Source: Candidatus Micrarchaeia archaeon
GTDB lineage: Archaea > Micrarchaeota > Micrarchaeia > CABMEP01
Length of the DNA stretch: 24,000 nt
Assembly (NCBI GenBank): GCA_038874185.1
Contig: JAVZCX010000005.1
Span: forward strand, 1 to 24,000
Reading direction: 5' to 3'
Positions 973 to 17,634 of this stretch are shown one piece after another. The position numbers and the translations under genes were made by a program. Below the pieces are notes generated by a model that was not told the origin of the DNA, searched no databases, and worked only from the letters and a program-made list of their open reading frames with translations. Position 1 is the first letter of the stretch; each line of letters starts with the position of its first letter.

Positions 973-1046
973 AAAATCACCATTCGATCATCACTTAATT
1001 TTTAGTAAGTAATTATCGCGAATTATCTAATCTCTAACAACTGTTG

Positions 1047-2333: not shown

Positions 2334-2546
2334 ACGCTCACTTATACTATGAATAATACTCTGATTATAGATTTAAATTATATTTTAAATTATATTATGA
2401 TTAAATTATATTTATGAATTTATGAATAAATACAAATTAAATTAAATATTTATGCCATTATTACACCATTATTTATATTAATATACCATCTCACACTTGT
2501 ATCATTTTGTCATCAATTTATAACCTATACTCTTCATTTGTATTGT
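2334..2546 (-). promoter_or_regulatory. Probable internal promoter/regulatory spacer upstream of paralog P6
   Basis: Longest spacer in the array (213 bp) and extremely AT-rich. Contains three copies of the 12-mer TTAAATTATATT (2373-2384, 2385-2396, 2401-2412), 40-80 bp upstream of the P6 start. Confidence 0.35.
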
Positions 2547-3752
2547 TTATATCATTCTAGCCAAACCTGAGATATCAACTTCCTGTCCAAATGCACGACT
2601 CAGTTCTCTAACGATTGCTACTAAAATAATCCAATTTATTGCTGGAAGCAGAAAGACAGGCAACAATGTTTTACCTACCTCAATATAGCCTGAATTGAAC
2701 ATATCAACTGCAGTATTCAAAGAGCCTGAAAGAACCAACAGAAATGCTCCACCACCTAAGAGAGGTACAATTGTAAGCGGACCTAACGCAAGGATTGTAA
2801 CAGTTATTGATGACTCCCAATCCAACTGTGGGGGAGAAACTGGTTGTGGGGAGTTTATTATCATATAAGAAAATGAAAATAATATTGGATAAAAGAACCA
2901 CAAACCCAAAGCCAAAGCAATAAATGCTCCGCCAAGATCACGTGTGGGAGAAAAACATCTTAAGACAACTCCAACTGGTAATAAAAGATTGAGAAAATAT
3001 GTTTGAATTGAATATAAAACCACTTTATATCCGTGCAAAAGAGATATAGAAAGCATGATAAGGCTTGAAAACCAATTTAAACCACCCAAGGCAACACTTG
3101 TACCGGAAAGCAAGTTAGTGTATAACCCTATCTTTACAAAATTTCCTAGTGGAAGGAATGAAGGTGCGTTTACGGATATCCTACTTAGAGCAGATATATA
3201 CATTATAGAATTCATCATCTTTAAATATGCTGAAAGAGCAAGGGATTCTGCATAATCAAAATATTTTCCAGCAGTATCAAAAAATGATGCATCTGCAAAA
3301 CCGAATTGAGTCAGATCCACAGAACAAAATACCAATATAACACTATAAAGAACTCCAAGCATAATTGCAGTAACAAAGATTTGGATGATGTCTGTTTTAA
3401 CTCTTGCAAGCAAAGATGAAGCATCCAAAGCCTTTGCTATAAGAAACATGATAGATAATAGAGCAAATGATGCTAAAAGTCCAATCAAAGACAATGATTT
3501 CCAATTTTGTTCAACTCCAATCGGATTGCTTGTACTTTGGTTGCCGAAGTCTAATTGTAGAGCTACCTCGCAACCTTTAGGAACAGTTTGTTCTGTCGGC
3601 TGTTGTGACTGTGCAAAAATAAATGGTAATAATAAGAGTAAAAATGTAATTGCAGATGCAAATAAATGAATGTTTAATTTATAGCTGTAATTTTTTTTAT
3701 CAGACTTATTGTGATTAATTAATTTATGATAAATGAACTCTTTAATTTTCAT
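2547..3752 (-). CDS. Polytopic membrane protein, paralog P5 of the same family
   Basis: 401-aa ORF. Long n-region signal peptide ends in IFA|QS. Core motif LLPVGVVLRCFSPTRDLGGAFIALALGLWFFYPI. C-terminal tail GQEVDISGLARMI. GGTG SD-like motif upstream of the ATG. Confidence 0.85.
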   Translation of the reverse strand: MKIKEFIYHKLINHNKSDKKNYSYKLNIHLFASAITFLLLLLPFIFAQSQQPTEQTVPKGCEVALQLDFGNQSTSNPIGVEQNWKSLSLIGLLASFALLSIMFLIAKALDASSLLARVKTDIIQIFVTAIMLGVLYSVILVFCSVDLTQFGFADASFFDTAGKYFDYAESLALSAYLKMMNSIMYISALSRISVNAPSFLPLGNFVKIGLYTNLLSGTSVALGGLNWFSSLIMLSISLLHGYKVVLYSIQTYFLNLLLPVGVVLRCFSPTRDLGGAFIALALGLWFFYPILFSFSYMIINSPQPVSPPQLDWESSITVTILALGPLTIVPLLGGGAFLLVLSGSLNTAVDMFNSGYIEVGKTLLPVFLLPAINWIILVAIVRELSRAFGQEVDISGLARMI

Positions 3753-3823
3753 CGAAACACCAAATTACATATCAAATTCATAATGTATACAGTATATATT
3801 GATTAAATATATATCTCCTTATT

Positions 3824-3859
3824 AATCATTATATCAACCTAACAATCATTATATCAACC
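3824..3859. repeat. 16-bp direct repeat AATCATTATATCAACC x2 (period 20 bp) spanning the stop codon of paralog P4
   Basis: Copies at 3824-3839 and 3844-3859. The second encodes the last residues and stop (R-L-I-stop) of P4 on the minus strand. The first is an intergenic duplicate of that 3' end. Confidence 0.8.
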
Positions 3860-4997
3860 GCACCAATGTGCTCAGATCTATTTCTCCGCCCATCAACTCT
3901 GCAAGCCTTCTTATCACATTCAATGTTATTAAATATGCCATTAATGGAAGAACTGTTGCTTGAACTAATATAATATTTAGCATCTCAGTAGTTTTTGAAG
4001 ATGATAATTCATGCTTTAGTAGAGAAAGCAGATCCTCCGAAACCGCCCCCCGTACACCCAAGGAAATTGAATGAATAAGTACACTTAAAAAGCTAGTATC
4101 AATATCTGCTTTGCAAACGTCTGTTCCATTAAGAATATAGAAACCTATATCTTCTATAACTAAATAAAAGAATGGAAGAAAGATAGTAAATCCAAACACA
4201 ATTGCAATCAAAGCTGATCCTGCACCCCTTGTGTATGGAATTGTACGAAAGATCAGACCTAAAGGAAGCAGAACATTAAACAACCCTAATTGAAATTCTG
4301 ATGAAAGAAACACTGATTGGAGCGTAAGCTGCATCAAAACCGAACCGATAACCCCCATTGCAAGCGAACCAAATCCGATAAATCCGCCACCTGTTGGAAA
4401 GAGCGGAAAGTATTGATTATATTGACCTATCGATATAGACAAAGATGAGCTAATAGGAACTGAAAACACGCCAATGAATTTTATTAAATAAGCAGATGCC
4501 TTCTTTGTATACCCTATTAAACATGATACATAATTTAATACGTGTGCCTGAAGACTTACCCAGCTTGTTGAACTTATGCTTCTTTGGCTCTCTTGAAGTG
4601 GATTGACCCAATTTGTCTTAAGCAACGCAGGTGAAAATTTATCTAAAGTACTAAGAAGTCCTAAATAGATCATGAGAATAACCGCAGTTCCCAATACTTG
4701 AAAAAGAATCTCTTTTGATTTATTTATCAGGCTAGGATTCTCTAAAAACATTCCAAGTCCATAAAGCAATGCAACTATACTAATCATTGTCAGCATTAGA
4801 ATAACAGAGAGATTGACTAATACATCAGGAACACAAATACCATTCTTTATGTACGAGCCAAAACCGCATTGTGCTGCAAATGAAACTGGGCTGATTACAA
4901 CTAGAGATATCAAAAATAGAAGCAATGTTCCTTTTGACTTTGCTAACCTATTATCCTGATTTTTAATATTTTTAATATCAAAACCTATAATTGACAT
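3849..4997 (-). CDS. Polytopic membrane protein, paralog P4 of the same family
   Basis: 382-aa ORF. Signal peptide ends in SFA|AQ, followed by a C-x11-C ecto segment. Core motif LLPLGLIFRTIPYTRGAGSALIAIVFGFTIFLPF. C-terminal tail GGEIDLSTLVRLI. TAGGAG SD sits in the 17-nt spacer after the upstream gene. Confidence 0.85.
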   Translation of the reverse strand: MSIIGFDIKNIKNQDNRLAKSKGTLLLFLISLVVISPVSFAAQCGFGSYIKNGICVPDVLVNLSVILMLTMISIVALLYGLGMFLENPSLINKSKEILFQVLGTAVILMIYLGLLSTLDKFSPALLKTNWVNPLQESQRSISSTSWVSLQAHVLNYVSCLIGYTKKASAYLIKFIGVFSVPISSSLSISIGQYNQYFPLFPTGGGFIGFGSLAMGVIGSVLMQLTLQSVFLSSEFQLGLFNVLLPLGLIFRTIPYTRGAGSALIAIVFGFTIFLPFFYLVIEDIGFYILNGTDVCKADIDTSFLSVLIHSISLGVRGAVSEDLLSLLKHELSSSKTTEMLNIILVQATVLPLMAYLITLNVIRRLAELMGGEIDLSTLVRLI

Positions 4998-5014
4998 ACA
5001 AATCTCCTAATTTA

Positions 5015-6268
5015 CTAAATAATCCTCGTTAGTCCAGCAATCTCTGGATCTCCACCGATCATAGGTGAGAAGTGTCTTACAAACCCTAAGGTCACAAATA
5101 TTGCGAGAATTGGAAGTATGATTACTGATAGATATGCCCTTCCAAGTGCATCAAATAAACCTAATTTCACTAGTCTTGAACCATCATATTCACTGTATAA
5201 ATGTTCTATATTTGTAAATGACGATGTGGATCCAAGTAAAGGCCCAAAGATTGTAGCTGGATCAGATATCGAAAATGCAGTTACATCTATTTCTGGAAAT
5301 TGCGGTTCACCTAAAGTAACGGTTGACCTATCTATGCTATACCATGCTAAAACATACATCAATGGAACAAAGATGTAAATTCCAATTCCAAGAGCAATCA
5401 TAAGTCCGCCAAATTTTCTTAAAAACCAAAATGACCTTGAAACTATACCTATAACAAACAATAATCCTGAAAGAGAAGTTAGATATACTAATGCAAATTC
5501 CTGTATTTTAACTGCAGTTATTATTTTAAGATACTCTAAAAGTATTATCTCTATTATTTTGTTGTAGGAAAGATATTCTGGAAAAGCGCCGATTCCAAAT
5601 GAAAATGTAATTTGTTTTCCAAATAGAGTTACTTGGACTGAAGATCCGACTGATAATCCTTCATATAACTTCCCAACGAAATATGATTTAGAAAGCTGTT
5701 TTATAACCTGACCATATCGCTCGTATAATGAACCAAGGAAACCTCTAGCAATATAGATATGACATGGATATTCACAAGAAGGCGAACTAGTAGTTATAAG
5801 ATTCCATCTTCCTGTGCTGCTAACATAACTCCAATATTGAATGCTTCCATCTGCGGCAGTGGAAGAAAGAATGTCTTTTGCAAGTGAAGAAGCCAGACTC
5901 TCAACTATTCCAACGAAAGCAGTGAACAAAAAGAGAATTGCAATTGAAAGAACCACATTCATGGCTTCTTCCTTTGTCCATGCTTCCAGTTCACGCAATG
6001 CAAAGACCCTTGAAATCATAAATGCAATTCCCAAAAGTAAAATTACAATCAGCATTACAAAATAAGAAACAAACAGCCAATCTATATTTGTTGAAAAACC
6101 GAATACTCTTCCAACATTTGCTCCTGTCTGTGCGAATGCAACAGATGAAAGGAAAATAGATAAAGATAATACTAACAATACAAAATGAAGACTTTTGAAA
6201 CTAGCAAGATTAATGCAGATTCCGTTTTTATCCCCAGTTTTATCGTTTAATATAATAAGCCTTTTCAT
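5015..6268 (-). CDS. Polytopic membrane protein, paralog P3 of the same family
   Basis: 417-aa ORF. Signal peptide ends in AFA|QT. Post-TM1 helix SRVFALRELEAWTKEEAMNV. Core motif FVIGIVSRSFWFLRKFGGLMIALGIGIYIFVPL. C-terminal tail GGDPEIAGLTRII. The start codon overlaps the upstream stop as TAATG (6266-6270, minus strand). Confidence 0.85.
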   Translation of the reverse strand: MKRLIILNDKTGDKNGICINLASFKSLHFVLLVLSLSIFLSSVAFAQTGANVGRVFGFSTNIDWLFVSYFVMLIVILLLGIAFMISRVFALRELEAWTKEEAMNVVLSIAILFLFTAFVGIVESLASSLAKDILSSTAADGSIQYWSYVSSTGRWNLITTSSPSCEYPCHIYIARGFLGSLYERYGQVIKQLSKSYFVGKLYEGLSVGSSVQVTLFGKQITFSFGIGAFPEYLSYNKIIEIILLEYLKIITAVKIQEFALVYLTSLSGLLFVIGIVSRSFWFLRKFGGLMIALGIGIYIFVPLMYVLAWYSIDRSTVTLGEPQFPEIDVTAFSISDPATIFGPLLGSTSSFTNIEHLYSEYDGSRLVKLGLFDALGRAYLSVIILPILAIFVTLGFVRHFSPMIGGDPEIAGLTRII

Positions 6269-7146
6269 TATTCTCCCTTTAATTCTGCGAAATCATATTT
6301 AAATATTTCACTCAATGCTCTTGCACTTGCAATTGTAATGATACTGCTCAGTGCAGGAAAGAATACTGCCTGCGGTAGAATCAAACCTATGTTTTGCATT
6401 ATCTCCCGCATCTCACTTACTTGTAAGCAAGTGGAATCAAATTCAGTACTAATTCGTGAAGTAACAAAACCCTCTGTTGATTTCTCTGCAATTATATAAG
6501 TAAGTGGAAAAACGATATAAAATGCAAACGCGATTCCAATTATATAAGCAGCTGTATCTTTCATTCCAGGTATAATGCGTAATACTATTCCTATGGGTAG
6601 TAGATACTGAAATGCTATTATTGAAATAAAGATAAGGGCGTATTGCTGAATCATAAGGCTGGCAACAAATGGTGTAAGAAGTACTGCAAAATTCTCATAA
6701 ACGTTTGCGACTTCATTGCATCCTACTAACGGTGAATAAAAAAGTGCTTCATAGTCCTTTACCTCTGCGGAATAAATTCTGATTTCCTTTGCCTTGTTAT
6801 ACAATCCTTGTGATATGTCTGCAATTTGATTGCTTACTCTACCTGCATAGTTTATTGCAGATGTGAATGGGCTCTCATCATTCGTAATTGAGCAGGAAAG
6901 CGAGCAGGTAAGGTTAGCAACAATAGCTATGATTGAAATCCAGATAACTGCAACAGAAAGATGATAGAGCTCAAGTCTTACCATTGCTTCCCAATCACGC
7001 CTATTCAAAAATCTTGAAATCATGAAACCTATAGCCAATGCTAGAAGAACGATAAATATCAGAGCACCGATTGTAGGCATCCAATTTAAGTAATCTGATG
7101 ATAAAGTGCAAGTACCTAAACATGTTGGTATTTCACTGAATGTCAT
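6268..7146 (-). CDS. Polytopic membrane protein, paralog P2 (short form without N-terminal signal peptide)
   Basis: 292-aa ORF. It starts directly at the short ecto segment (PTCLGTC ... NWMP), then TM1. Post-TM1 helix SRFLNRRDWEAMVRLELYHL. Core motif LLPIGIVLRIIPGMKDTAAYIIGIAFAFYIVFPL. The tail is divergent (SEIFKYDFAELKGE). AAGGAG SD sits in the 23-nt spacer upstream. Confidence 0.85.
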   Translation of the reverse strand: MTFSEIPTCLGTCTLSSDYLNWMPTIGALIFIVLLALAIGFMISRFLNRRDWEAMVRLELYHLSVAVIWISIIAIVANLTCSLSCSITNDESPFTSAINYAGRVSNQIADISQGLYNKAKEIRIYSAEVKDYEALFYSPLVGCNEVANVYENFAVLLTPFVASLMIQQYALIFISIIAFQYLLPIGIVLRIIPGMKDTAAYIIGIAFAFYIVFPLTYIIAEKSTEGFVTSRISTEFDSTCLQVSEMREIMQNIGLILPQAVFFPALSSIITIASARALSEIFKYDFAELKGE

Positions 7147-7169
7147 GAATATTCAACTCCTTTAGCAGG

Positions 7170-8777
7170 TCATACAAGTTCCGCTACTCCAAGAATCTGC
7201 ACTTCTCCACCAATCGCAGGTGAAATAGATCTAATTCCAGTGACTACAACTATAAGAATAATAAATGGTAAGAAAATAAAGGGAACTACATATTGAAGAA
7301 TGTAAGGGAGATAGTTCAACATCATATCTACGATATAAGGTGCAAGATCTTTATTTAATGCAACATATGCGCCCAATAATGCAATGTTTGAAATAGACTG
7401 TGCAATAGCTGATACATAATTAGATATTAATGTTGCAAAGGCAGGTGTTACAGGTGGAGAGGATACTACTTCTATAGCTTGCTCTAATAATCCAGGTATA
7501 GCAACTATGCTAGGTAGAGAGATGGTTCCAATATATGGAGCTACATTTGTACCTGTGATAGTACTTATCCAAGTAATTCGTATTGCATTAAATCCAGCTT
7601 CAACCTTCTCCATCAAATCAATAGATGCTGGCTCATTGAATAATGCTTTTATGACGTCACAGATCAATATAAATATGGGTGCACAGACTGGAGCGAATAT
7701 ACCACATATTGATGAATATGACACTCCAGATGTAATACAAAATGGTATATAGCTAAATGGACCCTGTGTACCTACGTTCAAGATGCCACTTATTACTCCT
7801 ATAGCAAGATGACCTAGAAAATCAACTATTGCGTACCATTTAATTGTATTAACAAAAACATCCACCTTCCCGGGTTTGTTTATGTGAGGAATCGCTGTAT
7901 TGGGTTGAAATGCAGAATTATACATTGTTTGAAAGATAATAATTGAAAGAGGTACGAAGATATAAAGACCAATACCAAAGGCGATAAGAGTTCTACCCAT
8001 TTTTCTAGTGATTGTAAAGAAGTTTAAAAATAAACCAAATGGAATTAAGACAGGAAGTGCAATCTTCCATACAAAATTAAGAATTGCATTAGAAAAAAGA
8101 GACACTATCAGAGCAAAAAGTGAAACTGATTGAATCATACCCATATGAGAATTAAAAACATCCACACCTGCAAATGGATTGCCTATTTTCATTGTAAACA
8201 TATCTAATCCAATTACCATAAGTCTAAATTTGGTTCCTGGCTGTTCTGTATCACCGCCTTTATTATCACCTGCAATCTTAGTAACCAGATTATATTGTGG
8301 TGGTGGACCAGATAATAATCCAAGTGCATATCCCAAGCGAATAGTATCAAGATAAGCATCCATTAGTTCGTTGGCTATCGAATCCAAAAAATTAGTGGAT
8401 GCGTGCATTGGCGTATAACCTGTGACTGCAACATAGATATTATCTATTACACCCACTGCTATTAATAGTATAAGAACTAAAAATAAACTGGCAGATACTT
8501 CATATAATTCTGACTTTGCCCATGTTTCCAGTTTCGGAAGACTGAATGCCTTTCCTAACATGAAACCTATTCCTGCTAAAAGAAATCCGATCAAAGCCAC
8601 AATTCCTAGTACTGGGAGCCAGTTTGGAATGGCGATACCTAATAATCGTTCACCTTCTGAATCTGAAATCTGCGCATAAGAAATAGAAAGTAAACTGAAA
8701 AATAAAAATAGCAAAATCACATATGGCTTTATTTTTTTAAATAGACTGGGGAGGATGGTATATAAACTTAACATCAA
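7170..8777 (-). CDS. Polytopic membrane protein, paralog P1 (longest; first gene of the array)
   Basis: 535-aa ORF. The track start at 8777 is a TTG, so the ATG at 8772-8774 is the more likely start. Signal peptide ends in SYA|QI. Post-TM1 helix GKAFSLPKLETWAKSELYEV. Core motif LIPFGLFLNFFTITRKMGRTLIAFGIGLYIFVPL. C-terminal tail GGEVQILGVAELV. No SD upstream, consistent with a first-in-operon or short-leader gene. Confidence 0.85.
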   Translation of the reverse strand: MMLSLYTILPSLFKKIKPYVILLFLFFSLLSISYAQISDSEGERLLGIAIPNWLPVLGIVALIGFLLAGIGFMLGKAFSLPKLETWAKSELYEVSASLFLVLILLIAVGVIDNIYVAVTGYTPMHASTNFLDSIANELMDAYLDTIRLGYALGLLSGPPPQYNLVTKIAGDNKGGDTEQPGTKFRLMVIGLDMFTMKIGNPFAGVDVFNSHMGMIQSVSLFALIVSLFSNAILNFVWKIALPVLIPFGLFLNFFTITRKMGRTLIAFGIGLYIFVPLSIIIFQTMYNSAFQPNTAIPHINKPGKVDVFVNTIKWYAIVDFLGHLAIGVISGILNVGTQGPFSYIPFCITSGVSYSSICGIFAPVCAPIFILICDVIKALFNEPASIDLMEKVEAGFNAIRITWISTITGTNVAPYIGTISLPSIVAIPGLLEQAIEVVSSPPVTPAFATLISNYVSAIAQSISNIALLGAYVALNKDLAPYIVDMMLNYLPYILQYVVPFIFLPFIILIVVVTGIRSISPAIGGEVQILGVAELV

Positions 8778-8846
8778 TTATTATTAAAAGAAAAGAATTT
8801 AAAATTAGATATATATATGTAGATAGTACAAAATAATAGGGAAAGA
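8778..8846. promoter_or_regulatory. Divergent promoter region between the paralog array (minus) and the 1057-aa bitopic protein gene (plus)
   Basis: This 69-bp AT-rich spacer is the only non-coding DNA between two head-to-head units. It contains TATA-like runs (TTAAAATTAGATATATATATG). No transcription start site can be assigned by eye. Confidence 0.4.
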
Positions 8847-11800
8847 ATGATGAAAAAATTGATTACGAAAATGGAACTTGCCTTTGACCATATTTTGCTT
8901 TATGTACTTATTTTAACTTTTCTCTCTTTCTTATCTTCTTCTCTTTATGCTGTAAACATCTGTCCAATAGATAAGAACCCAACAGAAATAACAATCGAAC
9001 ATTCAAGGCATCCGATAAATATACCTATAGGTATAACTGATAATACAATCGATGTTAATATACAACTTAATGCAATCGATAGAAAAACGCAAAATAGAAT
9101 ACCTCTCGCAAATAAGCAGGTTCTAATAGAACTCGTACTTGGAAGCAAATTTGTAACAAAAAATGCAGCTGGTGACTTTGTTCTTTCAGATGAACCAGCT
9201 CCGTTTCCAATAAATACAAGTGAAAACGGAACTATTTCCTTCACGATTTTTACTCAACCCCCACTTCTTGAAAATGTAACTGACCCAAGAAAGATCTCAT
9301 ATTCAATAACTGCTACATTTACACCGAAACCAAAAGAACCATTGATGGGAAGTGTGAAAACAGAGCGGTATGTCCCAGGTGTGCTTCCAATCATAAGCAT
9401 GACTGCTTGTGCTCCTCTTTTCATAATATTTGCTCTTCTTGTTGCTGCGATGTTTGCATCTGGAAAGAATCCGTTTGGTTTATTTGACTTTTCAAGAGTT
9501 GCGTTTAAAGCGCCAAGAATTCAGCCTGGAAGAGTTACAACTAGGGCTAAAACAACTGTTGGCACAGCACTAGCTGGAACTGCAGCTGGTGTTCTAAAAA
9601 GTGTGCTCGAATATGAAAAACGAAAAGCGATGAGAAAAGGATTAGAAAGTTTAGAGAAGAAGGCTGAAGAACTTGAAAAACAAGGAAAGAAAGAAGAGGC
9701 CGCTAAAGTAAGAATGCAGGCTGCAACACTTTTAGACAAGGTAGGAAGGAGATTATCTATAAAAGAAATTAAAGAAAAGGAAAAGAAAGAAGCAGAGCTT
9801 GGAATTGAAAAAGAAGAAGTAAAATTTAGACCTAAAATGTTAATAAAGGGATTAAGCCAAGAAGAATACAAGGCACTTAGAGACAGATATAACATAAAAG
9901 ACATAGAAAAATTCCGTTTTGGCGAGATTTTAACCGCATCATTATTGCAGGCAATGTCTAGATTGGGATACAAACCATGGATATATGCACATGGTATGGC
10001 AGTGGCAATGGAAAGACAAAGACCTATAAATAGATTAAATAAAGATGAAATCGAGAAAACTACAGAGGACATAACAAAAACTTTCAAATTAACTAAAGAG
10101 GAAATAGAAGAACTGAAAAAGAAGAATATAAAATTAGTTGATGAGAATGGATTAACTCCAGAGGCAAAGAAGTTTCTGCTTGAGAAATTTTTGAATGCAG
10201 GATATATACCAAAAAGCATCCAAAGCGAATTCACCAGGTTAGGAATTCTTAACGTTAATACGTTAAAAACAGAAATCGAACTTATAGATAAAATGAAAGG
10301 TAAGATAGGTGAAAAACAAATAGATGAGAAAATTGCCAATAAATTATTCCCTACAGCAGAAGAAATGCAAAATACGACTCCAAAAACAGCTAAGAATTTA
10401 GATCAACTTGTTAATCTACTTAGAAGTGGAGACTATACAAAAGCGGAAAAACTGATTAACAAAATGGAAAACAATAGAAATGAAATGCTTAACAAAATAA
10501 TGCCTTCGATTCCGACTGGAAGAACTTACGATCTATTACCACCTTTAGAAAAACAAGAAATCGCTTATTATATACAACGCGGTGTAATCTCAGGAAATGA
10601 ATTTTATAAGCGCCTTGGAATAGAAATGACAGAGCATGAATTGGCACGATCGCTTGGATTAGTTGCAAATGAATATGGAATTCCTAAAGATTTAGCAAAA
10701 GCCATAAAAGAGAATGATTACAAATACATCAAAGAAGTATATGATAAAACTGAAGGCAATAAAGAACAACGAAAGGTATTTGAATACATCATAAATGAAG
10801 CAGGAATAGGATATGCGCTCAATTACTTTGGAAACAAGAAAGATTTGGATAATTTCTTAACAAGCGAAGGAAAAGGTGGGATGAATCGTGATCAAATAAG
10901 AGATGCCGTAATTAAGACGTATGGTTATGAAAGCTTAAAACCGTATTTGCAAAATGCAGTAGGAAAAGATGAAATTGAAAAAGTTAATTATCTCATGAAA
11001 GAAAGGATTGATACTTTAAGAAATGAGATTCAAAATCTAGAAGGCAAAGTACCTAGAGACGATACGAAGCTCGCATCTTTAAGAACAGAATATAATAATT
11101 TAAGTGATTATAGAAAAGAAATAGAAAATAGAACAAACACATTAAGCCTGTTAAAAGATATAAATCAAAATAATAATATCTTCAGTCCCGACAGTATCGC
11201 GAGAGAGATAAGTGATATAAATGCAAATTATTGGAAAACTTATACCGAATCACTTAATTCTGTAATCAAGAAAAGTAAAGAGGTAGAGATAGAAAGCTTG
11301 ACAAAGGATGTCAATAAAACACTTTATAATGCAGCTGTCAGTTCAAACGATCCAGATGTAAAGAAACAACTATTGGAAGAATGGCGAAAAGTAAATAAAT
11401 TAGAAGGGAAGGAACCAACAATGGTTGGAGAGATTCGTAATGAATTTGAATCTCTCAAAACAGTGAAGGAATCACTAACAAACTCAATTGAGACTTTAAA
11501 TGATGAAATAAGTAAAAAACAAGCGATAATAAACGATTCTAAAACGCCTCCTGACGAAAGAAAAGAACTAGAAAATCAGATAAACAAACTTAAAAACATA
11601 ACATCAAACTTAGAGGATACCAACAAGAAATATGAGATAGATAAAAATTATAAAGAATACAAAACAATTTTAGAAGAACATACCAAAATGTTTAATGAGC
11701 ATCCTTATTTAGAGTACGGACATATTGATTCTATTTCTAAATTACCTGTAGAAGAAATTAAATATACATCTAATAGGGATGACCCTATTAACTCTCAACA

Positions 11801-12020
11801 CCTAACTCAAGCGAATGATATATTTCAAGCGTTCACTGCATTTAGTAACAGCAGTCTTGCCATGTATATTAAAAGAGTAGGCGAAGAAAACGGTTGGAAT
11901 GAAAAATGGCGTGAGCCTCCGACTTATTCTGAAAAAGAAATGAAAAAATTCAATGATGCTTTCTGGGGAGGTGAGGAAGAAAAGAAAGTAAATATGGAAT
12001 TTACTAAAAGTAAGGAATAA
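8847..12020 (+). CDS. Large bitopic membrane protein: signal peptide, beta-rich (Ig-like?) ectodomain of about 140 aa, single TM, about 850-aa K/E-rich helical cytoplasmic domain
   Basis: 1057-aa ORF. Signal peptide is LSFLSSSLYA|VN. Ectodomain (aa 36 to about 178) shows alternating beta-like patterns (VLIELVLGS, GTISFTIFT, ISYSITATFTP). TM is LPIISMTACAPLFIIFALLVAAMFA (about nt 9381-9458), followed by a basic stretch (KAPRIQPGRVTTRAKTT). The remainder is long runs of E, K, L, I and N typical of coiled coil. Transcribed divergently from the paralog array. Confidence 0.85.
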   Translation: MMKKLITKMELAFDHILLYVLILTFLSFLSSSLYAVNICPIDKNPTEITIEHSRHPINIPIGITDNTIDVNIQLNAIDRKTQNRIPLANKQVLIELVLGSKFVTKNAAGDFVLSDEPAPFPINTSENGTISFTIFTQPPLLENVTDPRKISYSITATFTPKPKEPLMGSVKTERYVPGVLPIISMTACAPLFIIFALLVAAMFASGKNPFGLFDFSRVAFKAPRIQPGRVTTRAKTTVGTALAGTAAGVLKSVLEYEKRKAMRKGLESLEKKAEELEKQGKKEEAAKVRMQAATLLDKVGRRLSIKEIKEKEKKEAELGIEKEEVKFRPKMLIKGLSQEEYKALRDRYNIKDIEKFRFGEILTASLLQAMSRLGYKPWIYAHGMAVAMERQRPINRLNKDEIEKTTEDITKTFKLTKEEIEELKKKNIKLVDENGLTPEAKKFLLEKFLNAGYIPKSIQSEFTRLGILNVNTLKTEIELIDKMKGKIGEKQIDEKIANKLFPTAEEMQNTTPKTAKNLDQLVNLLRSGDYTKAEKLINKMENNRNEMLNKIMPSIPTGRTYDLLPPLEKQEIAYYIQRGVISGNEFYKRLGIEMTEHELARSLGLVANEYGIPKDLAKAIKENDYKYIKEVYDKTEGNKEQRKVFEYIINEAGIGYALNYFGNKKDLDNFLTSEGKGGMNRDQIRDAVIKTYGYESLKPYLQNAVGKDEIEKVNYLMKERIDTLRNEIQNLEGKVPRDDTKLASLRTEYNNLSDYRKEIENRTNTLSLLKDINQNNNIFSPDSIAREISDINANYWKTYTESLNSVIKKSKEVEIESLTKDVNKTLYNAAVSSNDPDVKKQLLEEWRKVNKLEGKEPTMVGEIRNEFESLKTVKESLTNSIETLNDEISKKQAIINDSKTPPDERKELENQINKLKNITSNLEDTNKKYEIDKNYKEYKTILEEHTKMFNEHPYLEYGHIDSISKLPVEEIKYTSNRDDPINSQHLTQANDIFQAFTAFSNSSLAMYIKRVGEENGWNEKWREPPTYSEKEMKKFNDAFWGGEEEKKVNMEFTKSKE

Positions 12021-12032
12021 AAATTGAATTAA

Positions 12033-13364
12033 TCACCGGCCAAAAAATTTTTGCCTTTTCATTTTCTCTTCTGCAATCCGCATTACTTTTTCTGCCTCTT
12101 CATCGTCTTTGAACTCTACGGATTCACCTTTAAGTAATTTATCTGCCAACTCTTCAAGATGCTCCCTTTCCTTGTCCCATTGCTGTTGAAGTTCTTTCAA
12201 TAATGGTTGACCTTTGCAAACTTCTGCTGCCTTATCAATATACTTTTGATAAAATGGAAGCATTGCTGTTGATATTTCTATTCTTTTATCAATCAATTTT
12301 CTAATAAGATCACTAATAAATCTGACTCCCTCATCTAGTTTCATTGATTTGTGTCCCCAAAGTTTATTCCACTCATCATCTGATAAATCCTTATTATATT
12401 TTAAGAAATCTGATACCTTACTATAAGGTAAGTTCTTTATAAATTCTTTTTGGATTCCATGATGGACTTTATTGATTTTCTTGGCATCATTTCCTTCTTT
12501 TTGGATTGAATTAAGAAGTGTACCTTCTATTCGAGCTAGATGCTCCTTTGCTTCATTTGCAATTATAATAAAACTCTTCTCGTCTGCAAAATCTCTGAAT
12601 ACGTTATCTCGAAGAAAGCAAGGAGTAGAAAGCTCCCTGACATTGCTAACGGCATAGTTTGTAAGTCCTACATTATACAATAGATCACTGATTGCCCTGT
12701 ACAACATACGAAAGTAGAATTCATAATACCACTTTCTATATGAAAATGAAACATTATATTCCATTGCAGGTTTTACTACCTCTGAAATGGTCAAAACAGA
12801 TCTAATCCAATCCATATGACGAATTAGTCTATCCTTTTTTTCTAATTCAGGGGTCAATTCATCTTTCTTCTTATATATATCATTTTTCAATCTAAATACA
12901 AAAGTGCGCATTTGTAAAACCTTTAACGCCTCAATTATTCTTTCGTTTTTTTCCTTTCCGATTCTCTCTTCAACTTTTTCCATTAACTCGGGAAGTCTCT
13001 TATATTTACAGTGATATACGGCCTCCTTAATTTGAGAAGTTAAATCCTCTATTTCTTTGTCATTGATATAATACTTCCATTTCAAGTCGGAAATGTGGGA
13101 AAAGAGAAGATGGTTATGGTGGGATTCATCAAAATCCAAGCTGCTAATATTGAAAAAAATATCTTCATTCATATTTGTGTCTTGTGAAGAAGTATACGAG
13201 CTTAAATTATCAACGGTAGTAGAGCTCGTACCTATCGTTTCTTGTGAATATGAAGGAAACATAAGTCCTGCAGCTAGAACAGTGCCAAATGCAAATCTCT
13301 TGATTCTATCTTTTATTCGGTATGTCGTCTTTATTTCCTTTTCTGCCATATATTTTATTAGCAT
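12033..13364 (-). CDS. Exported or anchored alpha-helical protein, unknown function
   Basis: 443-aa ORF. Basic N-terminus plus hydrophobic span (RFAFGTVLAAGLMFPSYSQ), then an S/T-rich linker and a large domain that looks helical and rich in K, E and aromatic residues. The true start may be the internal Met (MAEKEIK). Confidence 0.7.
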   Translation of the reverse strand: MLIKYMAEKEIKTTYRIKDRIKRFAFGTVLAAGLMFPSYSQETIGTSSTTVDNLSSYTSSQDTNMNEDIFFNISSLDFDESHHNHLLFSHISDLKWKYYINDKEIEDLTSQIKEAVYHCKYKRLPELMEKVEERIGKEKNERIIEALKVLQMRTFVFRLKNDIYKKKDELTPELEKKDRLIRHMDWIRSVLTISEVVKPAMEYNVSFSYRKWYYEFYFRMLYRAISDLLYNVGLTNYAVSNVRELSTPCFLRDNVFRDFADEKSFIIIANEAKEHLARIEGTLLNSIQKEGNDAKKINKVHHGIQKEFIKNLPYSKVSDFLKYNKDLSDDEWNKLWGHKSMKLDEGVRFISDLIRKLIDKRIEISTAMLPFYQKYIDKAAEVCKGQPLLKELQQQWDKEREHLEELADKLLKGESVEFKDDEEAEKVMRIAEEKMKRQKFFGR

Positions 13365-13544: not shown

Positions 13545-14375
13545 ATGGTAGAAAAAATGGAAAAGGAAAGAGATAAAATAAAGAAAAAAGAAGAAAGCTT
13601 GACAGAAAAGATAAGAAGACCTATTGTAGAGAATATTGCAAAAGGACTAATAGGTTTTGGATTAATTTTTAATCCTGTGAAAGCAAACGCATTCTACGAC
13701 TACTATTATCTATATTATCCAGAATATAAAGAAATTGCTGAAATAATAGATAAGGATTTTGATGAGGAAAAAGGTAAAGTAATAAAGGAAATGTGGAATG
13801 CAAGAGAGAAAGACATGACCAAAAAAGCGATTGACATTCTAACTAATTTAGAAATAATGGAAATAGATCTAGAAGAGAAATATAATATAATAGAAGATAA
13901 AAAGAAATTCTATTTATATAGTATTCTTTTAATGAAGCAAGCAGAGTTCAATACTATAATTGATACCAAAGAAAAAGAAAGATTGCTTTATTTGGTAAGA
14001 GACAGAGTAACGAGAGAACTTGAAAAAGATCCTTATAATGTAGATACTCTGGAATTGGTACTTTTGAATGATAAAATATTGAAAGACATGTACCAAGAAG
14101 CAGGTTATTATATTGATATATATTATGAAGATGCAAGGAAACAAGGAAGACTTGAAATTAAAAACATAAGAACTAAATTCATAAATTCTATAAAGAGTTT
14201 CAAAGAACATTATGATAAATTAAACGAATTATTAAATATAGATAAGAATAAACGAACTTCTATATTTGACTATAGTAATAGAGAAAAGAAAAAGAAGATT
14301 AAAAGAATGATAGAAAAATTCGAAAATGATATGATTAGTATTGAAATGGATCTTAGAAAAGAAAGGCTCTTATAA
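13545..14375 (+). CDS. Exported or anchored K/E-rich helical protein, unknown function
   Basis: 276-aa ORF. Basic N-terminus, then a short hydrophobic span (IAKGLIGFGLIFNPVKANA|F), then a helical K/E/Y-rich sequence. Forms a divergent pair with 12033-13364. Confidence 0.65.
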   Translation: MVEKMEKERDKIKKKEESLTEKIRRPIVENIAKGLIGFGLIFNPVKANAFYDYYYLYYPEYKEIAEIIDKDFDEEKGKVIKEMWNAREKDMTKKAIDILTNLEIMEIDLEEKYNIIEDKKKFYLYSILLMKQAEFNTIIDTKEKERLLYLVRDRVTRELEKDPYNVDTLELVLLNDKILKDMYQEAGYYIDIYYEDARKQGRLEIKNIRTKFINSIKSFKEHYDKLNELLNIDKNKRTSIFDYSNREKKKKIKRMIEKFENDMISIEMDLRKERLL

Positions 14376-14410
14376 GTGCAATAATCAATATATAGAATTC
14401 TAAAATGAAA

Positions 14411-14431
14411 AGATATTAAAAAAATAAAACA
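14411..14431 (-). terminator. Putative archaeal oligo-T terminator for the tbp-domain gene
   Basis: An A7 run at 14418-14424 on the plus strand gives T7 on the minus strand, about 17-23 nt after the tbp stop. More T-rich sequence follows (minus strand reads TTTGTTTTATTTTTTTAATATCTTTTC). This is weak evidence in such an AT-rich genome. Confidence 0.3.
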
Positions 14432-14440
14432 AATTATAAA

Positions 14441-14719
14441 TCATCTCTTCTTCTGTGCTTTTTGAAGAATTGCCATTGCATTTCTGATTGCTAATTTTAC
14501 TTCTTTTTCTGTCTTGCAACCTGTACAGATTATCTTTCCATTCTTGAAGAGAAGTAATGATGATTTTGGTTCTTTAAGCTTAAGAATAGCTCCTGGGAAT
14601 TGCTCAGGCTCATATTCGATATTTGGAACCTTCCTTCCAAGAGAATAAAGATCCAGTTCGATTCCTAAGTTTGCTGATGCTACAATATTCTCAATCTTAA
14701 ATTTGACATCTTTCGCCAT
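14441..14719 (-). CDS. tbp: TATA-box-binding-protein domain protein consisting of a single TBP repeat (92 aa, half the normal TBP length)
   Basis: KFKIENIVASANLGIELDL ... NIEYEPEQFPGAILKLKEPKSSLLLFKNGKIICTGCKTEKEV matches the canonical TBP repeat (IENIVAS...L.L, EYEPE.FPG, EPK...L.F.SGK.V.TG.K). The protein ends in a basic tail (QKAQKKR) where the inter-repeat linker would start. GGGTG SD-like motif lies upstream of the ATG. Confidence 0.85.
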   Translation of the reverse strand: MAKDVKFKIENIVASANLGIELDLYSLGRKVPNIEYEPEQFPGAILKLKEPKSSLLLFKNGKIICTGCKTEKEVKLAIRNAMAILQKAQKKR

Positions 14720-14947
14720 TAAAACACCCTTTAAAAGCCCGATTATAACTCGGCCTTTTTAAATACTTAAATTTATATACCTCGGAAAGTATTTAAACCT
14801 ATTTAAATAGATAAAATTGCTGAGGATCTCATTTAGATATATGTATATTTTTAAACTTATCCTACATATATTATATCAATCTACATATTCGTTAGTATAG
14901 TTAGAATAAATTATAGCTAAATTTTGATAGATTTTTGAAGTGATATT
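14720..14947. promoter_or_regulatory. Divergent promoter region between the single-repeat tbp (minus) and the rpl21e operon (plus)
   Basis: 228-bp spacer with several TTTAAATA-type TATA-like elements and an 11-bp perfect inverted repeat (listed separately). Confidence 0.4.
14758..14797. repeat. Perfect 11-bp inverted repeat TTTAAATACTT / AAGTATTTAAA separated by 18 nt
   Basis: Read directly: 14758-14768 TTTAAATACTT, and its exact reverse complement at 14787-14797. Confidence 0.8.
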
Positions 14948-15232
14948 ATGGTAAAAGCATCAAAAGGAAGAATGAGCAGAAAAAGCAGAGTGCTTGGTAG
15001 AAAATCAACAAAAAGAAAGGTCACAGTAGTAGAACAATTAAAGACAATAAAGATAGGAACAAAGGTACAACTCGTTCCTAATGCTAAGTTCGAAGACTTT
15101 CCACACCCAAGATATGCTGGAAGGGTTGGAATAGTTAAAGGCAAGCAAGGAAACGCTTACATTGTTGAAGTCCAAGACGGAAGCATAAAAAAGAGATTCA
15201 TAACCTCTGCTGTTCATCTAAAGGAATGCTAG
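14948..15232 (+). CDS. rpl21e: 50S ribosomal protein L21e
   Basis: 94 aa. Basic N-terminus MVKASKGRMSRKSR, and FPHPRYAGRVGIVKGKQGNAYIVEV typical of L21e. GTGAT SD upstream. Heads the conserved archaeal L21e-RpoF-DUF655-KsgA neighbourhood. Confidence 0.9.
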   Translation: MVKASKGRMSRKSRVLGRKSTKRKVTVVEQLKTIKIGTKVQLVPNAKFEDFPHPRYAGRVGIVKGKQGNAYIVEVQDGSIKKRFITSAVHLKEC

Positions 15233-15243
15233 ATTAAAAGTAA

Positions 15244-15594
15244 GTGGTTAAAATGATAGGGAAAAAAACGCTTGATGTTAGGGAAGTCACACTTGCAGAA
15301 GTAAAAGAAATCCTTGAAATGCCTAGCGAGGTAGAGATGGGTTTTGAACAGGCGAAAACATTAGAATATGCAAAAAAAATGACTAAATTAAGCAAAGAAA
15401 AGGCAGAGGAAATGGTAACTGAACTTATGAATGAGGTTGCAAAGCTTAATAGAGCAAAGGCAGTAAAGGTAGTTGACTTGATGCCAAAGAAAAAAGAAGA
15501 GATTGATCAAATATTCGCAAAAGAGACTTATTCTTTAACTGAAGAGGAGATCAACAAGATAATTGAGATAGTTGCAAAGTACCAGAAAGAATAA
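15244..15594 (+). CDS. rpoF: DNA-directed RNA polymerase subunit F (Rpo4/RpoF)
   Basis: About 113-116 aa, acidic and helical (TLAEVKEIL ... AKAVKVVDLMP). Its position immediately after rpl21e and before the DUF655 gene matches the conserved archaeal gene order. The track start at 15244 is GTG; the ATG at 15253 is an alternative. Confidence 0.75.
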   Translation: MVKMIGKKTLDVREVTLAEVKEILEMPSEVEMGFEQAKTLEYAKKMTKLSKEKAEEMVTELMNEVAKLNRAKAVKVVDLMPKKKEEIDQIFAKETYSLTEEEINKIIEIVAKYQKE

Positions 15595-15607
15595 CTGGTG
15601 ATTTTTT

Positions 15608-16180
15608 ATGGAAGACTACGGAATTGTAATAGACTATTTGCCATTGGGTAAACCGACCGATATCAAAAGGGAACCGGTTGCTTACCTAGTCGGTGAAAGG
15701 TTCTTTACACTTCTGGAAGTTATAGTAAAAAGAAACGTCTCAATTCAGCTCCATAGTAAGCTATATATAGGAAAAGAATTGAATCAAAGAAATGAAGTAG
15801 AAAGAATAAAAGGAAGAGTTGAATATTCTGAACTTACGGGAGCTGCTAAAAATGAACTGAAAACTGCAATAAAATCAATAGTTAAAAGCAGAGAAAGTGA
15901 TTTTATAAATTTCATAAACAAATGCGGACCTGTAACAATAAGACTGCATCAGCTTGAGCTCCTACCTGGAGTTGGAAAGAAACACCTGGAAGATATAATT
16001 AAAGAGAGAGAAAGTAAGCCTTTTGAAAGCTTTGATGATCTTACAAAAAGAGTTCCTCATCTACTTAATCCAGTAGAAATGATAGCTGAAAGAATAATAA
16101 ATGAAATGAGTGGCAAGGAAAGATATTATTTATTTGTTAAGCCACCTATGCCACCAGCAAGTGATTTTAGAAGACGTTGA
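15608..16180 (+). CDS. DUF655/COG1491 family protein (predicted nucleic-acid-binding, OB-fold plus helix-hairpin-helix)
   Basis: 190 aa. N-terminus EDYGIVIDYLPLGKP and HQLELLPGVGKKHLEDII (HhH-like) are typical of the family. Perfect GGTGAT SD. Sits in the conserved neighbourhood. Confidence 0.85.
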   Translation: MEDYGIVIDYLPLGKPTDIKREPVAYLVGERFFTLLEVIVKRNVSIQLHSKLYIGKELNQRNEVERIKGRVEYSELTGAAKNELKTAIKSIVKSRESDFINFINKCGPVTIRLHQLELLPGVGKKHLEDIIKERESKPFESFDDLTKRVPHLLNPVEMIAERIINEMSGKERYYLFVKPPMPPASDFRRR

Positions 16181-16200
16181 ACAAATAGCTTAGTGATTTT

Positions 16201-16839
16201 ATGGAAAAAAAGAGAATTAAAAGAAAGGAGATCGAGAGAGAAGAGGTTAAAAATAAAGATTCGCAGGAGTCTTTTATTGATTCCTTCAAAAGTATGGTAA
16301 ATTTATTTTTCAATCCTGCAAAGTCTGCTGAATACACATATGAAACAAAGCAAACCATAAAAAATTCGTATTTATTCATTTATTTGTCTTTTTTAGTTTT
16401 TTTAACTTTATTTTTATTGCCTTCCCTTAACATCTTTGGTATTATTCTAGGTGCTTTAGTATTTCTATTTAATGTGTTTTTCATATTGTTAGCTATCGTA
16501 ACAGGTAGTTCATTCATATGGTTATCTGCAAGAATTCTTGATGTAAAAGCAGACTTTGAAAGACAAACTAATTCTATTTTAATATTTTCTACAGTTACAA
16601 TTATTCTAACAATAATTATATTAATAATTTCTTCTATCATTAGAGACCTTATTTTATTTAGTTTGTTAGTCTTTATCTATGGAATATATGGTATAATTTC
16701 AATAGTCAAGAACAACAACAACATTTCATGGATAAAGGCATTAATGATTATTGTATGGCCGATAATAGTACTTTTAATTTCATACATCTTTCTTTATGCA
16801 GTTACAAAAATTTTAATGCCATACAATGTTTCTTTTTAA
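16201..16839 (+). CDS. Small polytopic membrane protein (possibly Yip1-domain-like)
   Basis: 212 aa. Charged N-terminus (KRIKRKEIEREEVKNKD), then FFNPAKSAEY, then about five hydrophobic spans. GTGAT SD. The Yip1-like assignment is a guess from architecture only. Confidence 0.55.
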   Translation: MEKKRIKRKEIEREEVKNKDSQESFIDSFKSMVNLFFNPAKSAEYTYETKQTIKNSYLFIYLSFLVFLTLFLLPSLNIFGIILGALVFLFNVFFILLAIVTGSSFIWLSARILDVKADFERQTNSILIFSTVTIILTIIILIISSIIRDLILFSLLVFIYGIYGIISIVKNNNNISWIKALMIIVWPIIVLLISYIFLYAVTKILMPYNVSF

Positions 16840-16854
16840 TAAAATGTAGATAAG

Positions 16855-17634
16855 ATGTACAATAAAAGAAAACACTTTGGCCAGCATATGCTGGAGAATG
16901 AAGAGACACTTAAATACGAAGTAGAGATGCTGCAACCTAAAGGAAAAGTAGTGCTTGAGATTGGTGGAGGTACTGGAAACCTTAGCAGATTGGTTGCAGA
17001 GACTGCAAAGCACCTTGTTATTATTGAAAAAGATTTCAGCTTTGCAGATTCCCTTAAATTTTTATTCAAGAAAAAAAAGAATGTTACAGTCATAGAAGCT
17101 GACTTCTTAGATTTGAATGAAAAGGAGATTCTAAAAGAATCAAAGCAAAAGAGGATAGATCTGATAATAAGCAATGTTCCATATTCTATATCCTCTCCGC
17201 TTCTTTTCAAGCTTAAGGAATTTAATTTTGAAAAGGCTGTTCTCTGCCTGCAGAAGGAATTTGTAGACAGAATGATTGCAAAGCCTGGTGAAAAGGATTG
17301 GTCAAGATTAAGTGTGATGACTAATTATTACTTCAAGCCGATATATCTAAAGAAAGTTCCTAAAGGAAGCTTTAAACCAGTACCTGAAGTTGATTCTGCA
17401 ATTATTATGCTGTTCAAAAGAGAAAAAACAGATAACTCTGAATTCGATAAATTCATAGAACGGCTATTTTCACATAGGAAAAAAACTCTAGGTGCAGCTG
17501 CAAAGGCAAAGGAGATAATGGATGAGTATCCAAAATTAATTTTGGTGGCTGAAAAACTCGGTATGCAAAAAAGAAGAGTATTCACATTAACGATAGAAGA
17601 ATTGGAAATGGTTCATTCAATGTTAAAAGAATAA
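16855..17634 (+). CDS. rsmA: 16S rRNA (adenine1518/1519-N6)-dimethyltransferase RsmA/KsgA (Dim1)
   Basis: Motifs FGQHML, LEIGGGTGNLS (SAM-binding), SNVPYSISSPLLF, QKEFVDRMIA, WSRLSVM and FKPVPEVDSAII all match the KsgA/Dim1 family. Confidence 0.92.
   Translation: MYNKRKHFGQHMLENEETLKYEVEMLQPKGKVVLEIGGGTGNLSRLVAETAKHLVIIEKDFSFADSLKFLFKKKKNVTVIEADFLDLNEKEILKESKQKRIDLIISNVPYSISSPLLFKLKEFNFEKAVLCLQKEFVDRMIAKPGEKDWSRLSVMTNYYFKPIYLKKVPKGSFKPVPEVDSAIIMLFKREKTDNSEFDKFIERLFSHRKKTLGAAAKAKEIMDEYPKLILVAEKLGMQKRRVFTLTIEELEMVHSMLKE

Follow-up and report, generated by a model that had tools for sequence, protein, structure and literature searches.

The 24,000-nucleotide (nt) stretch of DNA analyzed here (the window; positions 1–24,000 of contig JAVZCX010000005.1, GenBank assembly GCA_038874185.1, Candidatus Micrarchaeia archaeon) carries, at positions 14441–14719 of its reverse strand, a gene for a TATA-binding protein (TBP) that consists of one TBP repeat. 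The gene is real, under selection and widespread, and we regard it as a TBP of new architecture. We consider it likely, with a probability of about two in three (0.68), that its product is the principal TBP of the lineage and acts as a symmetric homodimer. A stand-alone single-repeat TBP had been proposed at this position from the letters of the DNA alone (the sequence-only reading), and our analysis bears this out: the protein matches the whole of Pfam family PF00352, no second repeat lies adjacent to it or in a shifted frame, and the gene is under strong purifying selection and conserved in many genomes. The gene and its immediate surroundings are as follows.

14441–14719, minus strand: tbp, encoding a single-repeat TATA-binding protein of 92 amino acids (aa), isoelectric point (pI) 9.7 and net charge +8; open reading frame (ORF) with an ATG start.
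14725–14729, minus strand: Shine-Dalgarno-like GGGTG, 6 nt 5' of the tbp ATG; seen in the sequence and invariant in the related loci L001 and L007.
14376–14440, no strand: AT-rich spacer of 65 nt separating the stop codons of tbp and of the convergent ORF 13545–14375; from the ORF list and a six-frame hidden Markov model (HMM) search.

The window protein has a single Pfam match, to PF00352 (E = 5.5e-30; 103.5 bits against a gathering cut-off of 22.9), in which residues 6–87 align to profile positions 1–84 of 85. This amounts to one whole repeat, as the sequence-only reading had anticipated (a single domain over about residues 8–88), so that 92 aa stand in place of two tandem repeats of about 180 aa. 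That reading had also pointed to the gene's own ribosome-binding motif and start codon, which are both in place, and had argued that the 65-nt gap to the convergent neighbor leaves no room for a frameshifted second repeat. The spacing and the six-frame search agree on the latter point: the spacer holds no trace of a second repeat, and across the whole 24 kb the family HMM recovered the gene's own repeat at E = 8.9e-53 and, as its next hit, noise at E = 0.14. An AlphaFold2 (AF2) monomer model built from a 32-sequence family alignment has a mean predicted local distance difference test score of 89.8 and the strand and helix order S1-H1-S2-S3-S4-S5-H2, with the chain ending two residues past H2. 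Superposed on one half of each solved TBP, all of which have two repeats, the model deviates by a root-mean-square deviation (rmsd) of 0.8–0.9 Å across about 81 residues, with a TMq near 0.85 and a TMt of about 0.42–0.47, and all 44 of its significant structural matches in the Protein Data Bank (PDB) are two-repeat TBPs. By sequence, the window protein matches PDB TBPs at E = 1e-39.

The residues through which TBP engages DNA and TFB are retained in this single repeat, and two segments of the gene encode most of them.

14591–14617, minus strand: stirrup codons E35–G43 (EYEPEQFPG), including the first DNA-kinking phenylalanine, F41; invariant in 32 family members and aligned to 1AIS/1D3U.
14522–14554, minus strand: codons L56–T66 (LLFKNGKIICT), including the second kinking phenylalanine, F58, and the S4-S5 DNA-contact residues I64 and T66; from the family and PDB alignments.

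The 32 family members, which are 63%–89% identical to the window protein, share 33 invariant columns, among them N11, V13, E35–I45, F58, K62 and I64. Within the second segment the invariant residues are L56, F58, K59–K62, I64 and C65, with T66 close to invariant; the DNA-contact set N11, V13, F41, L56, F58, I64 and T66 is present and invariant or nearly invariant. Residue roles were assigned by carrying knowledge of TBP-DNA and TBP-TFB structures over the PDB alignments. We take N11, V13, F41, F58, L56, I64 and T66 to be the equivalents of yeast N69, V71, F99, F116, L114, V122 and T124; in yeast, F99 and F116 are the phenylalanine pair that kinks DNA, and N69, V71, L114, V122 and T124 are minor-groove residues. 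An acidic stirrup contacts TFB or TFIIB, through the C-terminal EYEPEQ in P. woesei and through E284, E286 and L287 in human TBP. The window residues E35-Y-E-P-E-Q40 match the C-terminal (repeat-2) stirrup of P. woesei letter for letter and do not vary within the family.

The family is also strongly basic. Single-repeat proteins and the two-repeat proteins of the same DPANN-type clade have a median pI of 9.3, compared with 5.3 in a Thermoplasmata outgroup, and the N-terminal tails of the single forms contain 210 Lys/Arg against 38 Asp/Glu. Long histone-H1-like tails rich in Lys, Ala and Pro are common (listed for L068, P0105, the P0075–P0120 group, L045, L031 and L048). The N terminus of L068 consists of KKAVKKKPAAKKK three times over, and several of the C-terminal tails resemble KAKPAKAKKVKKHKHAKKAKKKKRR. 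L062 has a long acidic Asp/Glu tail in place of a Lys-rich one.

We infer that two 92-aa chains would pair through their S1 strands and helices to form a ten-stranded, perfectly symmetric saddle. F41 and F58 of each chain, four phenylalanines in all, would kink the TATA box, and N11, V13, I64 and T66 would line the minor-groove surface. Each half would present an identical EYEPEQ stirrup to TFB. The strongly basic core, like the Lys-rich tails, probably contributes non-specific affinity for DNA; core and tails may also compensate for the entropy lost when a dimer assembles on DNA. A symmetric TBP of this kind would have no polarity of its own, and the direction of transcription would come from TFB reading the B recognition element (BRE). 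The sequence-only reading had asked whether TFB and BRE alone could set promoter polarity; for archaea this question already has its answer, in that TFB reading the BRE determines direction (PMC7289017, citing Bell et al. 1999). Given that role of TFB, the lack of differentiation between repeats in this clade and their high internal identity (both described below), TBP symmetry appears tolerable in archaea.

Conservation in relatives, which had been named as a check on the proposal, is strong. The Nei-Gojobori ratio of non-synonymous to synonymous substitution rates (dN/dS) over the core is 0.016 against L001 (14 synonymous and 1 non-synonymous differences) and 0.017 against L007 (30.5 and 3.5). 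We used these two close pairs only and set aside the pooled value for distant pairs (median 0.21), which is unreliable because dS is saturated. TBP is 98% identical between the window and L001, while neighboring products are 54% (276-aa ORF) and 42% (1057-aa ORF) identical to their L001 counterparts. The possibility that the gene is a decayed remnant, raised in the sequence-only reading, is ruled out by a dN/dS of about 0.02 in close pairs.

The position of the gene corresponds to that of the main tbp of its lineage. The window is archaeal (32.8% GC) and encodes L21e, RpoF/Rpb4, DUF655, KsgA, class I LysRS, Pus10 and DTD2; several of these lie in an operon that is divergent from tbp.

14948–17634, plus strand: partner operon of L21e (14948–15232), RpoF/Rpb4 (15244–15594), DUF655 (15608–16180), Yip1 (16201–16839) and KsgA (16855–17634); from Pfam matches and synteny.

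The divergent arrangement of tbp and the L21e-RpoF-DUF655-KsgA operon recurs in L001 (98%-identical TBP, 359-kb contig), L002 (68%-identical, 1.08-Mb contig), L005 and L007; in L004, too, tbp is divergent from L21e. We surveyed the best 80 species loci out of at least 600 pattern matches in GTDB. Among those with adequate flank, tbp is divergent and adjacent to L21e at 18 of 33 single-repeat loci, with the operon nearby in four more, and at 27 of 39 two-repeat loci; the arrangement was found at none of the six loci with adequate flank (of eight in total) in the canonical Methanomassiliicoccales/Thermoplasmata outgroup. Because one- and two-repeat genes occupy the same L21e slot, the single-repeat gene is the positional orthologue of the lineage's main tbp.

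This placement bears directly on another suggestion of the sequence-only reading, that the protein is an accessory paralogue. Under this explanation a normal two-repeat TBP would be encoded elsewhere, and the short protein would be a modulator, either a competitor for TFB or a regulator, comparable to TbpA or to the Thermococcales proteins. Precedent favors it, as all single TBP-domain proteins described earlier coexist with full-length TBPs; Brindefalk et al. (2013) recognized two kinds, all euryarchaeal and both found beside a normal TBP (PMC3597702). Halobacterium TbpA is, like the window protein, a genuine TBP repeat that stands alone and groups with TBP repeats; its species also has full-length TBPs, which it closely resembles, and can do without it (PMC3597702). 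The window gene differs in sitting at the ancestral locus, in being clade-wide and under strong purifying selection, and in having no close two-repeat counterpart among the matches listed. The monopartite proteins of Thermococcales (P. furiosus NP_578195; 82–136 aa) are of similar size and likewise consist of a single TBP-fold domain encoded by a stand-alone gene, but their relationship to TBP is remote, with alignments that extend over a few dozen residues; they cluster separately by sequence, and a normal TBP is present beside them (PMC3597702). The window protein, about 42% identical to canonical repeats over some 80 residues and with its functional residues kept, is not a member of that group.

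For the window lineage, an accessory role is unlikely. The gene lies in the ancestral tbp slot, where the two-repeat sister lineages have their only detected tbp, and its DNA- and TFB-contact residues are all invariant at a dN/dS of about 0.02. DPANN genomes are small and rarely retain spare general factors. Among the best 80 loci, we found no two-repeat partner for any of the 34 single-repeat genomes, and the species representative closest to the window, GCA_038881595.1, gave a single locus (L009). The same scan was able to reveal additional genes: it returned two loci each for OY968769.1 and JAGGYF01, as well as canonical TBPs at 49%–55% identity. That only the best 80 of the pattern matches were covered is a point in favor of an accessory role.

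The single-repeat form extends well beyond the window. A search of a library of 1.84 billion proteins gave about 100 distinct single-repeat TBPs of 88–134 aa among the matches listed. An identical protein is on record from an NCBI metagenome-assembled genome labeled Candidatus Micrarchaeia. The single-repeat TBPs share the core FKIENIVASANL..ELDLY....V..VEYEPEQFPGAILKLK.PK.SLLLFKNGK.ICTG.K.E.EV, with variable Lys-rich tails at either end. The window protein has the features of this family: a length within 88–160 aa, one PF00352 repeat, a NIVA...EYEPEQFPGAI...LLLFKNGK.IC core, basic character and a gene divergent from L21e. In the GTDB survey, 34 of the 80 loci are single-repeat (89–159 aa), and some deep sub-lineages are uniformly so, for example a "DYEPEQFPGAI" group and an "IQNIVVS" group. 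The genomes concerned are labeled Micrarchaeota, Micrarchaeia, Iainarchaeum or Diapherotrites. We think it fairly probable that across large parts of Micrarchaeota/Iainarchaeota the only TBP is a single-repeat homodimer, with repeated switching between one and two repeats.

Some short TBPs, or their loci, that resemble those of Micrarchaeota in sequence and synteny carry other taxon labels at NCBI (Brevinematia, Omnitrophica, Marsarchaeota and Methanobacteriota; P0007, P0009, L024, L026, L030, L038 and L085), probably through misbinning or mislabeling. The protein library also holds TBPs of three or four repeats. P0122 (272 aa) has the order N-N-C with near-identical N repeats; P0126 (702 aa) carries, after its four divergent repeats, a long C-terminal stretch that is not TBP; and P0121 and P0147 (376 and 329 aa) resemble tandem-duplicated eukaryote-type TBPs and are possibly gene-model artifacts.

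The sequence-only reading had named, among the results that would refute it, a second repeat hidden next to the first by an assembly error; we treated this as the most serious rival, and the risk is a real one. Two near-identical repeats could be collapsed in frame, so that A-S-B-S-C is read as A-S-C. Several two-repeat relatives contain exact stretches of DNA shared between their repeats (51–89 nt in L014, L066, L016, L004, L037, L041, L053 and L025), the longest being 89 nt in L014, 80 in L066 and 79 in L016, followed by 62, 56, 55 and 51. L004 is a sister lineage's two-repeat tbp in the same slot, with at least 69 nt of exact DNA shared by the repeats; its contig stops inside repeat 2, and L053 has a scaffold gap there. 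Such genes are fragile in assembly and could be collapsed in frame by a short-read assembler. Several single forms can be composed exactly from parts of a two-repeat relative.

For the window's own clade, such a collapse is excluded. Logan contigs (k = 31) run through the single-repeat gene into unique flanks: one of 3.2 kb, from SRR27215045, encodes the identical protein, two others measure 43.6 and 87.7 kb, and a further contig of 12.4 kb spans the gene of a 68%-identical relative. All 31-mers of a Logan contig are distinct and repeats are not resolved (PMC12424806), so that a hidden repeat sharing at least 31 nt would have broken these contigs. All 31 distinct proteins that are 76%–100% identical to the window protein among the matches listed, from four sources (NCBI, JGI, ENA and Logan), are complete single-repeat forms of 88–114 aa. 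No two-repeat protein above 74% identity occurs among those matches, the closest two-repeat form standing at 74%, and none of the matches listed for the window's clade is a fragment containing an inter-repeat segment. In other sub-lineages, metagenome-assembled genomes (MAGs) produced with Nanopore reads and Flye have a single-repeat tbp, located on contigs of 243, 659 and 198 kb (L039, L043 and L071), while a fourth has two repeats (L067); the Microflora Danica MAGs of this type have a read N50 of 6.1 kb (PMC12313526). An assembly artifact is accordingly a very improbable explanation of the window gene.

In identity, the repeat is neither N-terminal nor C-terminal. The sequence-only reading had it starting like repeat 1, a description that does not survive comparison with 133 two-repeat TBPs: its identity to the canonical N repeats is 41.7%, and to the C repeats 42.3%. 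On a log-odds classifier of N versus C repeats the window protein scores +6.8, against means of +30 for held-out canonical N repeats and −35 for C repeats. It matches each of the ten NCBIfam TBP models over half the profile, and these divide evenly, five being matched in their N half and the other five in their C half. The lack of the usual N/C differentiation is a property of the whole DPANN-type clade, whose repeats all score between −11 and +19 on the canonical classifier. Canonical N and C repeats separate cleanly on it across archaea and eukaryotes.

In a neighbor-joining (NJ) tree of individual repeats, a single clade of 48 leaves unites all single repeats with the N as well as the C repeats of DPANN-type two-repeat TBPs. 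This clade is apart from about 250 canonical repeats, and two-repeat forms occur in at least four places inside it. At depth the midpoint-rooted tree is ladder-like and leaves the DPANN clade unplaced relative to canonical N and C repeats, for which the classifiers were used instead. The complete DPANN-type two-repeat TBPs have the highest internal repeat identity of the set (53%–64%; set median, 37%). The exact inter-repeat runs in several DPANN-type genes, set within otherwise diverged repeats, are the kind of trace left by gene conversion or by a very recent duplication. In L016 and L025 the nearest relative of the C repeat is the N repeat of the same protein, and in L014 and L037 that repeat is within the top three. 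Exact chimeras joining the start of repeat 1 to the end of repeat 2 were found in L005 (relative to L004/L014), L050 (relative to L063) and P0100 (relative to L025); L004 and L005 are alike in upstream gene order, yet the former has two repeats and the latter one. Switching between one and two repeats by recombination fits these exact runs, chimeric single forms and own-repeat nearest relatives, and the sequences suggest that it proceeds at this locus by unequal recombination and gene conversion. In this scenario, the single-repeat form would be a derived state that arose within the DPANN clade when two almost identical repeats recombined in frame, and related lineages would have re-duplicated or gene-converted theirs.

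A different origin can be imagined, in which the single repeat is a retained pre-duplication state of TBP. The absence of canonical N/C differentiation in the clade and its grouping outside the canonical repeats of either kind in the NJ tree are what a primordial relic would show, although gene conversion or re-duplication explains the missing differentiation equally well. The clean N/C separation across archaea and eukaryotes places the duplication before their divergence. Micrarchaeota are nested within Archaea, and the two points together speak for a secondary reduction. Sister lineages hold two-repeat genes at the same locus, and the chimeric single forms show that reduction occurs. We therefore regard a relic as extremely unlikely and the window repeat as probably a secondary reduction. 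The resemblance to ancestral TBP suggested by the sequence-only reading thus stands for architecture but not for origin, where secondary recombination within DPANN is favored.

Several points weigh against a sole, homodimeric, secondarily reduced TBP. The case for sole-TBP status relies on positional orthology and on the absence of partner loci among the best 80, viewed in contexts of ±10 kb, so that a second TBP, canonical or single-repeat, may lie elsewhere in the genome. The sporadic single forms within two-repeat sub-lineages (L005, L050 and P0100) may be short-read collapses, in which case the count of 34 in 80 is perhaps somewhat inflated. The repeat tree covers about 80 columns and has no bootstrap. 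The chimera signal in the window protein itself is weak: by thirds it scores +12.4/+6.7/−2.3 on a classifier trained on DPANN-type two-repeat proteins only, where N repeats give +11/+4/+18 and C repeats −14/−4/−17, so that its start is N-like and the signal is lost at its end. The clear chimeras show this pattern too, but convergence at a free C terminus could also give it. Finally, one genome, JAGGYF01 (Ca. Iainarchaeum AUK171), holds two distinct single-repeat genes, L013 and L047, on separate contigs.

This last case raises the prospect of a split TBP, in which the short protein would pair with a different single-repeat TBP encoded elsewhere to form a non-covalent, asymmetric saddle. In JAGGYF01, L013 is in the L21e slot and L047 outside it, and the two are either a true paralogue pair, possibly a heterodimeric split TBP, or the product of a mixed bin. 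It is the only such genome among the 34, and genes of the L047 type are the sole TBP locus seen in other genomes (L035 and L068). With one locus in GCA_038881595.1 and no second repeat within the window's 24 kb, we consider a heterodimer improbable here, and a homodimer remains our preferred reading of the window protein.

Comparison with known systems places the window protein among true TBPs. Canonical archaeal TBPs (P. woesei 1AIS/1PCZ, M. jannaschii 2Z8U and S. acidocaldarius 1MP9) belong to PF00352 and have the same repeat fold, at 0.8–0.9 Å rmsd, with the phenylalanine pair and the Asn/Val/Thr DNA-contact residues in common; the window's EYEPEQFPG recurs unchanged in the C-terminal stirrup of P. 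woesei TBP and in each of the two M. jannaschii stirrups. They differ in having two fused, N/C-differentiated repeats of about 180 aa in total, where the window protein is undifferentiated and basic. The DPANN-type two-repeat TBPs of Micrarchaeota/Iainarchaeota (for example L011, L014, L025 and P0123) share with the window protein the repeat clade, the basic character, the L21e slot and the invariant core. They consist of two fused repeats, which in several have 51–89 nt of exact DNA in common, and are the likely source or product of the single form. The N-terminal TBP-like domain of RNase HIII and the TBP-fold domains of DNA glycosylases are also single helix-grip copies with no fused partner (PMC3597702), but the likeness is remote (Foldseek E about 0.5, for 3ASM and 8BVX) and these are multidomain enzymes rather than transcription factors.

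We found no earlier description of a DPANN single-repeat TBP in the open-access literature, subscription journals being mostly outside the search. In DPANN surveys TBP is simply recorded among the factors present (PMC8407392, PMC8204110). It figures as two fused repeats in reviews and structural papers (PMC7289017, PMC4041446, PMC12917281), and a monopartite TBP appears only as a hypothetical prototype, in a review and a 2026 structural paper (PMC7289017, PMC12917281). TBP is the textbook case of a pseudo-symmetric protein that arose by internal duplication, and its symmetric homodimeric precursor has so far been a matter of inference only. If our reading is correct, the window protein would be a living equivalent of the hypothesized pre-duplication TBP. 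Archaeal initiation could then dispense with both the covalent linkage and the N/C asymmetry of TBP, polarity coming wholly from TFB and BRE. A single-repeat TBP would make it possible to test whether a symmetric saddle bends TATA DNA and recruits TFB, whether asymmetry is needed, and what is gained by fusion.

These proteins are easily overlooked. The window protein misses the cut-offs of all ten NCBIfam TBP models (60–92 bits against cut-offs of 181–347), which explains its label of "hypothetical protein" from the Prokaryotic Genome Annotation Pipeline. As curated TBP models miss single-repeat proteins and leave them so labeled, marker surveys may score TBP as absent or partial. L011, a complete two-repeat protein of 192 aa, is also under every NCBIfam TBP cut-off (best 191.7 against 288 bits, and 162 against 181), so automated annotation will under-call TBP across the DPANN-type clade.

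The region between tbp and L21e is itself conserved.

14720–14947, no strand: divergent tbp/L21e intergenic region, a presumed bidirectional promoter region; about 92% of columns are identical in an alignment of the window with L001 and L007.

This level of identity is maintained although dS in the tbp coding sequence reaches 1.06. The region contains the boxes TTTAAATA, TTTAAATA, TATATAAA and TATTTAAAAA, which flank a small GC palindrome, CCTTCCGAGG, and judging by sequence it may be a bidirectional promoter or the site of a regulator. A scan for sigma-70 promoters and terminators showed no enrichment and is not applicable to an archaeon. A candidate 5'-UTR hairpin upstream of the Shine-Dalgarno-like motif was dropped, as it had no covariation support in L007.

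On the other side of tbp lie ORFs with no Pfam match. One of 443 aa (12033–13364, minus strand) is 44% identical to a 425-aa ORF in L007 (10421–11698). The position and strand of this ORF of about 430 aa differ between the window and L007, and it is absent from the matching region of L001, which indicates a variable insertion spot beside tbp. The remaining large ORFs (286–1057 aa, at 112–12020 and 13545–14375) are fast-evolving but keep their order in L001 and L007, and may encode surface or host-interaction proteins of a symbiont.

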